Shown here piece by piece: positions 12,001 through 15,000 of a stretch of DNA of 30,805 nucleotides. A program made the position numbers. How positions within the stretch are numbered: position 1 is the stretch's first letter; each line of letters begins with the position of its first letter. This DNA comes from a virus, in UHGV virus genome UHGV-0077717; one strand, given 5' to 3'.

Positions 12001-15000
12001 TCTATGTTCATGATTGATGAGAGTTGCTTCAGCAGCTTCAATTCTGGATTCATGGTCTGCAAGGGTGACATCCTGCTCATCGTTCCTGACCTGTGCATCA
12101 TAAGCGCCCTGTCCGGCCTCGTTGGCTTTGTTAGCCACGTTACCAACATCAGTGCCCTGTGCGATAACGTAAAGCAGATACGACTGCGAGAAGATATTGC
12201 GTGGAAGAACTGATGTATCGAGCCGCGTAGCCTGGACGATTACCGGCACATTGAGATTCGAATCAGCCATTACTCAATCCTTATCTGAGCGCCAGACAGA
12301 GTGACAGGTGACTTCGTGATAACGCGCAATTTGAAACCGACATTTTTCCTGATGCGCCCTACTTTCTTCCACAAAACGCGCTTGTCGTAAACGAACGGTT
12401 CATTCTGCTCAATCATCTGCTCACGCCCGTAATTTATGCCGTCAGTGGTTGCAGACAGAAACAGGCGGTCAGCGTACTGCGCAACACCCGTCGATGATTC
12501 CACCTCCAGATCAAAGCATCTGGCGTTATCCGCTTTGAACAGTGGAGTAAACAGCAGGTGTTCCTGTTGAAGCCCATACTGACTGCTGATATCGAACTGC
12601 AATTTCCCGGTCACCGATTCCAGCTTATCGCCGCACGTTATCTGATTGCCTTCGTAAATGAAGTCGATAGCGCGGTACACATCGTCATACAGGCCTGTTT
12701 TCAACACACACCATTGCGGACCATTGGCGCTTGAAGATGCGTCGTACACGAGGACGTGGCGCGGAAGGTGGATAATCAGCAGTTCATGCGCATCAAATCG
12801 CAGCGATTCCATCACACCATCAGCCAGTTCATCAGCAGTGTAGGAGCGGAGGATTTTCTCAATGCTCGCGCTGGCGATTGGTGATACCTGACCGGAACCA
12901 ATGATGTACACAGACGGCGCACCCGTTGCCGGATTGCTGATGAAAGCATACGAATCAGCAAACGGCGTTTTGCAGTAAGTCCCGGCAATGCCTTTCTGCA
13001 CCATCAGCGATGGTTGTGCAACATACAAAGCGGCACCAACGGTGGTTGCACCAGTCAGGGAGAAATATTCAATCGTCGATGAACCAAAGCAGACGATGAA
13101 GTCTCGCCATGCGCCGATACCGATGATGCCGTCCGGCTGCGATTCTGCGCGATATTGTGCGCTGTAGCGGTCAGGATGCGATTCGTCTTCAAGGTCAGTG
13201 ATAAACCATGAATCAGTTCCGTCTTTTGACCACGCATAACGCCCACGTAAGCGCGTAATGTCGCGAACTGAACCTAACTCATACTGAGTGAATCCACTGT
13301 CTGTAGGCCAGTTTGAGACGGTTTTAACCGTACCATCATAGCGATACTCGACCAGTTGACCATTAACGCCTACCGCCTGTGATGTCCGACCATGCGCCAT
13401 TGATACGCGACCACTTCCGGCAACATCACCGACTTCGCTTTCGCCTTTGTAGAGCTTGCCGCCACACACACGATAGACAGCATTCTGCGCCATGTTGTAC
13501 TCGACGCCTCGAGATGCACCGTTCACATCAGAGCGTTTTGCAATGCCCGGGAATGAGCGAAGATATCCGCTGCTGTTGAGTATTTCTTTGGGCGTAGCCA
13601 GCATATTCACTGGCAGATAGTCGATATAGTCCGCGTTTCGAAAGTCTTTGCCGACACCTTTCATAAGCGGAAGTTGCTGAATCGGCATTATTCGCTCCCG
13701 TTATCGCAAGGTTCCTTTCGCTGGAAGTAATTCCAACCGTTCCACTTCGCCAACTGATTACCGCTACCAACAGGCATACGGTTTGGATAACCGGACTTAC
13801 ATTTAGCGGCTTTTGCTCTGTCCATTGCAGACAGTTTGACGAGTCGCTCTTTCCCGTATCTGGCAGTGGTTATAAGTTTTGCTGACGCTTCCAGCGCATA
13901 ATCCGGAGCAATGCGGCAGGCAAGGTTGAAAATGACGGCATTGATAGCGTTATTTGATAAACCGTGCTCATCGCCCGGATCCGGAGCGACATCTGCATCA
14001 GCAAAAATGTAGCCAACGTTGATACCAGGTGACGCATCACCGCCAAGCCATTCAGCCATCATCATTTCAAGGTCGTTGACGCCGTCTTCCATGGACTGAG
14101 GTTCGACATCGGTTAACGTGGCATTTGATGCCACACCGAGCTTACGTAATGCCGCAAGAACTAAATCACCCTTCGTTGTCAGGTTCATCTGCTGCCGCCT
14201 TAGGTTTTCGACCAGGCTTTTTACGCTGTTTTTCTTCTGGCTCTGGCTCTGGCTCTGGCTCTGGCTCTGGCTCTGGCTCTGCAACATCCTTCAGAAGATC
14301 ATCAGGATGTGCAAACCAGCCAGCATCCAGATATTCCTGAAGCTCTTCGGCTTTCACGATTTCAAAGTCGTATCCAACGCCTTTCCATTTCTTCATGTCG
14401 CCATGACGAAATATCATGTGTGTCATGCTTGTCTCCAGATAAAAAAGGGAGCCGAAGCTCCCTCTGGTTATCACGCGGTCTGGTTAGGCAGACCAACACC
14501 AATTGCCTCTGGTCGTACAGCACATGCTGAATACCACACAGCAATACGGCACTTACCAGACAGAGTGTTGATATCACCCTGCGTTGCGAAGATGCCGTTA
14601 ACACCAATACCAGGAATGCTGAAGGAAGACGTTTTCATGCCAGCAAACAGTTCATGGGTTACCGGGATCGGCTGAGACAGCAGACGGATTGAGTCATCAG
14701 CCCAGAACACATTAGCGGTGGTTGTTGCCACGTTCAGAACGTTTACCGGAGTGGTATCAGCAAGAGAGGTGTTTACGTTAGCGTAAGCCTTCTCTTCTTT
14801 TGTCAGTGACGCGTCATCAAGCGCAATCGGCTTCGGCGTGATTTCGATGTGAGTACTATCGATCACACGGGTGATTGAGAAAGTCGCATCATCAGTTAGC
14901 ACGTTCTTCGCCATCTGAGACAGGAATTTCACACCAGTGAAGCTGATTTTGTCGCCGCGCTTAAATCCGGTGGTGGAGGATACGGTCACCGTTGCAACAC

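Follow-up and report, generated by a model that had tools for sequence, protein, structure and literature searches.

A small gene with a GAGCCA array of variable length between the coat gene and gene 4 of P22-like phages

The virus genome UHGV-0077717 carries, between the gene of its major coat protein and gene 4, a perfect array of seven hexanucleotides, which raises the question of whether these units belong to a protein of their own, to the N-terminus of gp4 or to an untranslated stretch, and of how their number changes among relatives. In this study, we analyzed a stretch of 30,805 nucleotides (nt) of this genome, referred to as the window. Its P22-like (Lederbergvirus-type) virion module lies on the minus strand in the order portal (16691-18856), scaffold (15766-16677), coat (14471-15766), a small open reading frame (ORF; 14166-14426), gp4 (13688-14188), gp10 (12270-13688) and Sf6-type needle (11317-12270). 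The best overall explanation, in which we place high confidence, is that the array is an in-frame, slippage-prone microsatellite within a genuine gene of the P22 orf69 family, where it encodes a disordered acidic linker. The gene and its parts are the following.

14166-14426, minus strand: small gene of 86 codons, homologue of P22 orf69 (match to phrog_1175, open ORF, slot)
14280-14426, minus strand: conserved N-terminal domain of a helix and two beta strands, spanning residues 1-49 (AlphaFold2 (AF2) model, invariant columns, codon-position counts 5/0/17)
14238-14279 (14236-14281 by Tandem Repeats Finder, TRF), minus strand: GAGCCA array (TRF, direct reading, shuffles)
14166-14237, minus strand: C-terminal tail of 23 residues and stop, with the motif KKPG(R/P)KPKA; the last 23 nt overlap gp4 (homologue alignments)

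Read directly, the array is (GAGCCA)7 and encodes (Glu-Pro)7, residues 50-63 of the product of 86 amino acids (aa). TRF reported a period of 6, 7.7 copies, 100% matches and no indels, including partial units at both ends; the array therefore consists of perfect short units joined head to tail, as in a variable-number tandem repeat (VNTR) or microsatellite. An 18-nt probe of three units gave 5 matches, while 0.00 were expected from 100 dinucleotide-preserving shuffles. An earlier inspection of the window without database searches, here called the sequence-only reading, had described seven exact tandem hexamers in an otherwise non-repetitive virion module. The hexamers are as described and none is expected by chance, but the module is not otherwise free of repeats, since TRF found an imperfect tandem repeat of three 42-nt units at 11944-12067 in the tail-needle gene. 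These units encode 14-residue (two-heptad) repeats, ADHETRI(T/A)AAE(T/S)EL, in the coiled-coil shaft of the needle, whose knob is of the Sf6 type (Pfam Phage_tail_NK).

The small ORF starts with ATG at 14426-14424 and ends with TGA at 14168-14166, so that its product is composed of 49 residues, (EP)7 and 23 further residues. Five lines of evidence place the repeat in this frame, namely codon-position bias, the match to phrog_1175 together with the open ORF, a longer form of the gene, the variant units and the broken Ser-Gln extension of gp4. Within the 147 nt upstream of the array, the variable sites among 93 related loci are distributed 5/0/17 over codon positions 1/2/3, and the small ORF is open in all 93 of these short-form loci. 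Among the variant units, GAACCA is the commonest (35 occurrences); it leaves the protein unchanged in the Glu-Pro frame and would replace Ser by Asn in the Ser-Gln frame, and the variant GAGCTA encodes Glu-Leu in the former and a TAG stop in the latter. A 203-aa long form, which occurs in a subset of E. coli prophages, also has the array in the Glu-Pro frame. Thus, the frame assigned to the repeat in the sequence-only reading stands, and so do the 86 codons, the GGAG-ATG start at 14426 and the position between coat and gp4, which were confirmed by direct reading and Pfam matches of the neighbors. As comparison of the related loci indicates, this P22-like prophage has in the ORF a genuine small late gene that is translated. 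The elements around it, which are needed to judge other readings, are given below.

14471-15766, minus strand: major coat protein gene, upstream neighbor (Pfam P22_CoatProtein, E=1.2e-165)
14441-14465, minus strand: hairpin resembling a terminator, GGGAGC-UUCG-GCUCCC plus U6, immediately behind the coat stop codon (terminator scan)
14433-14436, minus strand: GGAG Shine-Dalgarno sequence of the small gene, 6 nt before the ATG at 14426 (direct reading)
14285-14287, minus strand: upstream in-frame ATG, rejected as gp4 start (used in the GenBank records of IME10, Dewey and Louie)
14195-14202, minus strand: TAAGGCGG, probable gp4 ribosome-binding site inside the P-K-A codons of the small-gene tail (conservation)
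13688-14188, minus strand: gp4, head-tail adaptor/packaged-DNA stabilisation protein, 166 aa, start MNLTTKGD (Pfam P22_Tail-4, E=2e-58)

Because the gp4 ATG lies at 14188, the 3′ end of the small gene overlaps gp4 by 23 nt, and the gp4 frame is open further upstream to the ATG at 14287. Starting there, it reads MLQ(SQ)7… and yields a product of 199 aa, in which the repeat would be a Ser-Gln N-terminus and the 86-codon ORF no gene. This long gp4 is annotated in three GenBank records (IME10, Dewey, Louie), and its frame is open in 88 of 95 loci. However, AGC-CAG repeats cannot hold a stop codon, so the openness of this frame carries little information, and in the other 7 loci the frame is closed or the ATG is lost, including by TAG stops from GAGCTA units. 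The P22_Tail-4 profile begins at the methionine of MNLTTKGD (gp4 residues 2-160 align to profile positions 3-151), as the sequence-only reading had anticipated when it placed the Ser-Gln stretch upstream of the conserved gp4 start. Gp4 of P22 and of phage L starts at the equivalent position and has no extension, and RefSeq E. coli genomes annotate the 501-nt form. Also, GAAGG abuts the upstream ATG with zero spacer, the commonest variant unit would alter the Ser residues, and the distribution of variable sites over codon positions ahead of the array agrees with the Glu-Pro frame. An N-terminal extension of gp4 that is conserved, open and provided with a start codon was thus not found across the relatives. 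The Ser-Gln-extended gp4 was rejected, and the reading in which it replaces the small gene is very improbable.

Since all five lines of evidence point to the Glu-Pro frame, the long gp4 of IME10, Dewey and Louie is regarded as an annotation artefact. In these records (L006, L002 and L003), gp4 was started inside the repeat and the small gene was not called, while APC_JM3.2, Bas106 and RefSeq E. coli genomes do call it. The conflict between a spurious (SQ)n gp4 N-terminus in three records and an omitted small gene elsewhere can thereby be corrected. In APC_JM3.2 (L001, 1819-2319), gp4 is labelled 'recombinase RmuC'. Two ORFs on the plus strand, antisense to the virion genes, also cross the array (14118-14675, 185 aa, and 14125-14340, 71 aa); they read (WL)n and (GS)n and overlap the 3′ end of the coat gene and the 5′ end of gp4. 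They are almost certainly spurious and held open by the stop-free repeat.

The gene has relatives in well-studied phages. Its product matches phrog_1175 over residues 1-84 with E=7e-37, and this family also takes in P22 orf69 (NP_059631; MKIAIYKPGGSIMVWGVMAQMKVIDSSELPEYVKDGWLDHPSKLLPVEADDVKPRKGRKPKAVSDADKD) with E=4.5e-31, which sits between gene 5 and gene 4 of P22. Comparison of the family alignment with P22 orf69 using hhalign gave Prob 97.9% over 68 columns, the full length. Position and architecture are those of the P22 orf69 family (PHROG 1175) as well: the order coat, hairpin, ORF and overlapping gp4 start is found in the window and also in P22, phage L, Enterobacter and a metagenome contig, and an N-terminal domain, a linker and a KKPG(R/P)KPKA-type tail follow each other in the protein. 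Homologues with 65-71% identity (Enterobacter ludwigii; metagenome contig) lie in an identical portal-scaffold-coat-X-gp4-gp10 order. GGAG or GAGG is kept ahead of the gene in the homologues.

P22 orf69 shares with the window gene the slot after the post-coat hairpin, the overlap with the gp4 start, and the sequence of N-terminal domain, linker and basic tail (KxxKGRKPKA; KPRKGRKPKA). It differs by a non-repetitive linker of 7 residues, PVEADDV, in place of the pure hexamer array, and its protein identity to the window product is about 32%. The orf186 of phage L/ST64T (PHROG 3769; PF25311) is a long form that ends with …RPKEPATKERKKPGPKPKAESDADKD. It has the same slot, a related N-terminal domain and the basic tail (KKPGPKPKA), but contains an extra WDGH domain of about 100 residues between N-terminal domain and linker and has no Glu-Pro array. 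In contrast, E. coli versions named 'WDGH domain-containing protein' carry the GAGCCA array and the tail DNA of the window itself. In the E. coli long form of 203 aa (Pfam WDGH PF25311, E=1.5e-39; PHROG 3769, E=7e-100), the N-terminal domain, WDGH, AEPEPEP… and the 23-residue end of the window protein follow in a single frame. By these alignments, P22 orf69, phage L orf186 and the window ORF belong to a single family whose members share the three-part layout. Uniting them opens a way to study a conserved gene in one of the classic model phages.

The family is narrow, because an HMMER search with the N-terminal domain among 1.84 billion representative proteins found only about 8 true family clusters. 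PHROGs lists both families, 1175 and 3769, as of unknown function. In the accessible part of the phage L paper, orf186 is given as 'detailed function unknown' and is not named among the virion proteins (PMC8022706). Our search of the literature found no paper on the WDGH domain. Some members of the small-gene family are named 'dihydrolipoamide acetyltransferase' in NCBI and UniRef, presumably due to their Pro/Ala/Glu-rich linker. For E. coli SJC33 and strain 44 (L087, 1075-1685; L088, 1075-1667), RefSeq calls the long form a pseudogene 'missing C-terminus', and in L088 the tail is split off as a second partial coding sequence. In both loci the long-form ORF is intact (about 203 aa), and the WDGH model ends before the Glu-Pro array and tail. 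A tblastn search against phages detected the WDGH domain (PF25311) widely in unrelated Listeria (P100 gp128), Bacillus, Streptococcus and Lactococcus phages and also in Staphylococcus, Erwinia and Klebsiella phages, always as 'hypothetical protein'; its fusion to the orf69-type N-terminal domain and tail was seen only in P22-like phages.

The window protein consists of a conserved beta-beta-alpha domain of about 49 residues, the linker and a conserved basic tail. Invariant positions of the N-terminal part in the family alignment are G9, W14, G16, Y19, D20, G36-W37 and H40-P41-D42. AF2 predicted strands at residues 2-8 and 19-25 and a helix at 26-34, with predicted local distance difference test (pLDDT) values of 88/71/93/91 over residues 1-40. 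Across the family, this domain comprises about 45-49 residues, and the linker is acidic or Pro-rich. The Lys/Arg/Pro-rich tail noted in the sequence-only reading was recovered as 23 residues with KKPGRKPK. Its basic motif is kept in P22 orf69 (KPRKGRKPKA), phage L orf186 (KKPGPKPKA) and divergent homologues, and in all family members it is followed by a short acidic end overlapping gp4. Array and tail are predicted to be disordered or extended, with pLDDT values of 46-57.

These data also bear on the possibility that the ORF is fortuitous and the repeat an untranslated RNA or a DNA/RNA cis-element between coat and gp4. In favor of this, the ORF is short and without a Pfam match passing cut-off, it follows a terminator-like hairpin, and it is missing from several annotations. 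Against a cis-element stand the strong third-position bias of the N-terminal part (5/0/17), conservation at the protein level, which retains G, W, GW and HPD even at the about 32% identity to P22 orf69, the conserved GGAG-ATG start, the continuity with the WDGH-domain long form, and family branches that lack any repeat. In addition, RNA spanning the array up to the gp4 start has no excess structure and is less structured than shuffled sequence (z=+1.4), which gives no indication of a control of gp4 translation by the repeat. A structural or untranslated role of the array was therefore rejected, and a fortuitous ORF is highly improbable.

The array was found to differ widely in length, and the prediction of a hypervariable linker was thereby confirmed: phages, IMG/VR contigs and E. 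coli genomes carry between 1 and 33 whole hexamers. Eight phage genomes matched the 401-nt region at 95-97% identity with length differences of -30 to +6 nt. The region was present in 217 of 5,426 complete E. coli genomes, with matched spans of 365-557 nt for the 401-nt query. Alleles read directly had 1 unit (74 aa), 2-16 units, and 24, 29 and 33 perfect units; in the 93 short-form loci there were 39 distinct array alleles, most often with 4-7 units. To compare close relatives, flank haplotypes were defined by 600 nt, 300 nt on each side of the array. Among the 15 flank haplotypes seen more than once, 10 carried differing unit counts (e.g. 4/6/6/13, 4/11/16 and 29/33). Copy number, whose comparison across related genomes the sequence-only reading had proposed as a check, is thus not invariant and differs even between identical flanks. 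Pairs with 0-2 flank differences differed in count in 78% of the cases, the same level as distant pairs, and therefore the array saturates long before the flanks change. Close relatives thus differ by whole units only, as VNTR alleles do. Accordingly, the array (1-33 units) may be used as a highly polymorphic marker for telling apart near-identical P22-like E. coli prophages.

Spans that deviated by other than multiples of 6 (+35, +101, +53, -1, -7) had suggested frameshifted alleles, but were due to a 1-nt indel in the post-coat spacer, and the ORFs were intact. The frame is unbroken in 93 of 93 loci, and since the unit within the ORF is 6 nt, divisible by three, there is no on/off switching of the phase-variable kind. 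In this, the array differs from classical phase-variable contingency loci. It resembles the in-frame hexanucleotide VNTRs of enterobacterial and prophage ORFs used in multiple-locus VNTR analysis (MLVA typing), which likewise have perfect short units and change by whole units, and whose alleles differ between near-identical genomes and are stable within clones. In-frame hexamer VNTRs encoding flexible spacers are already well known, so that no new mechanism is involved.

Short-read assemblers can collapse or expand microsatellites, and many IMG/VR contigs are draft assemblies, so differences in copy number might be artefacts of sequencing or assembly of a low-complexity region. However, arrays of 6-200 nt fit within the read length for most alleles, the differences are seen in complete RefSeq genomes and isolated phages, and interrupted alleles show distinct internal patterns. 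Moreover, independent assemblies of one strain agree; the span is shared by independently sequenced or clonal pairs such as E. coli W (two genomes), 2018-01-1CC (two), AHM8C (two), 0H18/0H26 and others. An artefact is therefore hardly credible as the source of the variation. Two assemblies of about 4.83 Mb labelled 'DH5alpha' (NZ_CP026085.1 and NZ_CM135829.1) carry the region with a 395-nt span as in E. coli W. As one would not expect this part of a P22-like prophage in a K-12 derivative, the strain names of both assemblies may be wrong.

In the searchable literature, we found no account of the variability of this locus and no paper giving the repeat sequence in a phage context; matches to 'orf69' concern other phages. 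The GenBank record MG197996 marks a repeat_region at this locus. The genome announcement of APC_JM3.2 does not discuss its annotated repeat_region.

The pattern of changes is that of slippage. All array changes are whole hexamers, and the longest arrays are pure. Interruptions (EQ, ET, ES, DP, EL) are point variants of the unit, and two loci are homogenised to a variant unit, (GAACCA)12 in L007 and (GAACCA)11 in L009. In the homologues with 65-71% identity, the unit is still GAGCCA, although the flanking silent sites have diverged extensively. Where the linker DNA is not repetitive, length is fixed: P22-type genes encode exactly 69 aa in 42 of 44 IMG/VR loci while their linkers carry point substitutions (PVEADDV, SSESGDA, PFDEDNV), and the phage L-type tail has 34 aa in 37 of 37 loci, 36 of them identical in sequence. 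Long forms with the GAGCCA array vary again, from (EP)1 to (EP)7. Variability therefore tracks repeated DNA and not the linker as such. From this pattern we infer that units are gained and lost by slipped-strand mispairing, as the sequence-only reading had supposed in proposing in-frame expansion and contraction.

In the window lineage, the linker of the orf69-type gene is built of pure GAGCCA units, and comparison of the relatives shows that the array gains and loses whole units, most simply by slipped-strand mispairing during replication. The Glu-Pro spacer thereby ranges from 1 to 33 dipeptides with frame, tail and gp4 overlap undisturbed. The spacer is probably an extended, disordered or polyproline-II-like acidic tether, to which each unit would add about 0.6 nm. 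Since P22 manages with 7 residues and E. coli prophages tolerate 2-66, a critical role of linker length is improbable, and most of the variation would be tolerated drift and not a switch.

An adaptive contingency locus, in which linker length is tuned as a ruler or for escape from a host factor and diversity is kept by selection, would account for the very high diversity (39 alleles in 93 loci, counts of 1-33). It would also fit the retention of the pure GAGCCA unit across diverged lineages and both cassette forms, and of an array at all though a 7-residue linker suffices in P22. Yet hexamer slippage alone would predict all observations, drift and selection being judged here from sequence patterns, and sister branches hold a fixed short linker. 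Any linker length from 2 to 66 residues is tolerated, which speaks against a precise ruler, and clonal pairs are identical. Adaptive tuning is thus unlikely, and the variation looks like tolerated drift. The natural allele series of 0, 1, 7 and 33 units represents a built-in experiment on the importance of linker length.

In addition, the array coincides with a boundary of genome mosaicism. Relative to the window, the long-form loci L087 and L088 show 98% identity from the coat gene through the hairpin and the Shine-Dalgarno sequence to 14432, no relationship over the stretch that follows, and 98-99% identity from a point within the array (14269 or 14251) onward through gp4. Short and long forms are therefore alternative cassettes. 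Their left junction is formed by hairpin and ribosome-binding site and their right junction by the Glu-Pro array, so that array and tail travel with gp4; this suggests that the repeat or linker serves as a recombination joint.

Regarding a possible function, the core of the N-terminal domain, residues 21-38 (FEIVKAEELQEYLDAGWF), resembles a module of about 34 residues from GIY-YIG/NUMOD3 homing endonucleases, with the consensus …K[DN]G..K.[VI]…ELQxYLD[DN]GWxxG and 3-6 tandem copies in the C-terminal regions of these enzymes (proteins P0130-P0144). Searches with phmmer gave E=1e-5 to 1e-7 to the multi-repeat endonucleases, which match Pfam GIY-YIG, SegE and NUMOD3. A comparison with the module by hhalign gave Prob 96.5% over 18 columns only (residues 21-38), and the reversed control was empty. 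Unlike the endonucleases, the phage protein lacks a nuclease domain and contains the module only once, with a longer hairpin. The module seems to be a DNA-binding repeat not described before; it had no Pfam match in our scans and no solved structure was found, and its DNA-binding role is for this reason an assumption.

The tail recalls an AT-hook, whose core is Arg-Gly-Arg-Pro flanked by basic residues, in being a short basic peptide with Gly and Pro in a disordered tail, and the homologue P0133 has RRGRPPK. However, the window has PGRKPK (within KKPGRKPK) and most relatives PGPKPK, so that the Gly-Arg-Pro core flanked by Arg or Lys is absent from the window tail and was seen in P0133 only (RGRPPK). 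Besides, the motif partly overlaps the gp4 ribosome-binding site.

Linker and tail together resemble the spacer of TonB, (Glu-Pro)n-(Lys-Pro)n, in which an alternating Glu-Pro segment is followed by a Lys/Pro-rich basic stretch. In TonB, these segments are extended, polyproline-II-like spacers with about 0.3 nm per residue; this geometry would give arrays of 1, 7 and 33 units lengths of about 0.6, 4 and 20 nm. The window protein differs from TonB by being cytoplasmic and phage-encoded and by lacking a membrane anchor and the TonB C-terminal domain. The NCBIfam TonB model scored 13.9 bits (E=0.04) against cut-offs of 265-315, over the Glu-Pro segment only, and Pfam TonB_C was not matched. The resemblance is compositional, without homology. 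The match to trypanosome procyclin (PARP; PF05887), with 18.4 bits against a cut-off of 100, is likewise a compositional match to the Glu-Pro run. Apart from these compositional matches, the Pfam and NCBIfam scans gave no fitting family for the small protein. Neither the short nor the long form matched PADLOC defence or counter-defence models at E<=0.1, and no related solved structure was found for the small protein.

Tentatively, the small protein may be a late accessory protein that is not essential and whose two ends bind nucleic acid or another protein, with the Glu-Pro run as tether; its role as a nucleic-acid binder is weakly indicated and only a lead. That the orf69 family would be an unrecognised class of small late nucleic-acid-binding proteins, combining an endonuclease-type module with an AT-hook-like tail, and the Glu-Pro array a selected contingency locus varying reach or evading a host factor, is a quite improbable extension of this idea.

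The coding sequence of the tail probably has a second task. Its P-K-A codons read CCTAAGGCG in every lineage, with a likely gp4 Shine-Dalgarno sequence inside, nine bases before the gp4 ATG. The sequence CCTAAGGCGG is identical in the window, L096, L097 and P22 despite diverged silent sites around it, and TAAGGCGG probably acts as the gp4 ribosome-binding site. The arrangement of the small-gene stop inside the start region of gp4 suggests translational coupling.

When the reading as a slippage-prone microsatellite in a genuine orf69-family gene is weighed, several points count against it. Both translation and slippage are deduced from the comparison of sequences, and with the present data unequal recombination is indistinguishable from replication slippage. 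Because clonal genome pairs show identical spans, the array is not unstable in culture or on laboratory time scales; it is fast only in comparison with point substitution. The likeness to the endonuclease module covers 18 columns, and its significance is inflated because the repeats were selected by similarity to the motif. Finally, since the P-K-A codons (CCTAAGGCG) contain the gp4 Shine-Dalgarno sequence, conservation of the tail may partly be imposed by gp4 expression instead of protein function.

Upstream of the small gene, the hairpin at 14441-14465 is more stable than shuffled sequence (z=-2.8). It is shared by P22, phage L and the Enterobacter and metagenome homologues, where changes in one arm are matched in the other (GGGGC/GCCCC) and P22 has the loop UGCG. 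The hairpin is annotated as stem_loop in P22 and as terminator in phage L. The phage L paper mentions intra-operon terminators of this kind and states their role to be unknown (PMC8022706). Possible effects of the hairpin are weaker expression of the head-completion genes downstream than of coat, or a more stable 3′ end of the coat mRNA.

On the other side of the coat gene, the records of Dewey (L002) and Louie (L003) contain at 1-170 an HNH endonuclease gene on the opposite strand, immediately upstream of coat, where other relatives carry the end of the scaffold gene. It probably represents a homing-endonuclease insertion in the head module.

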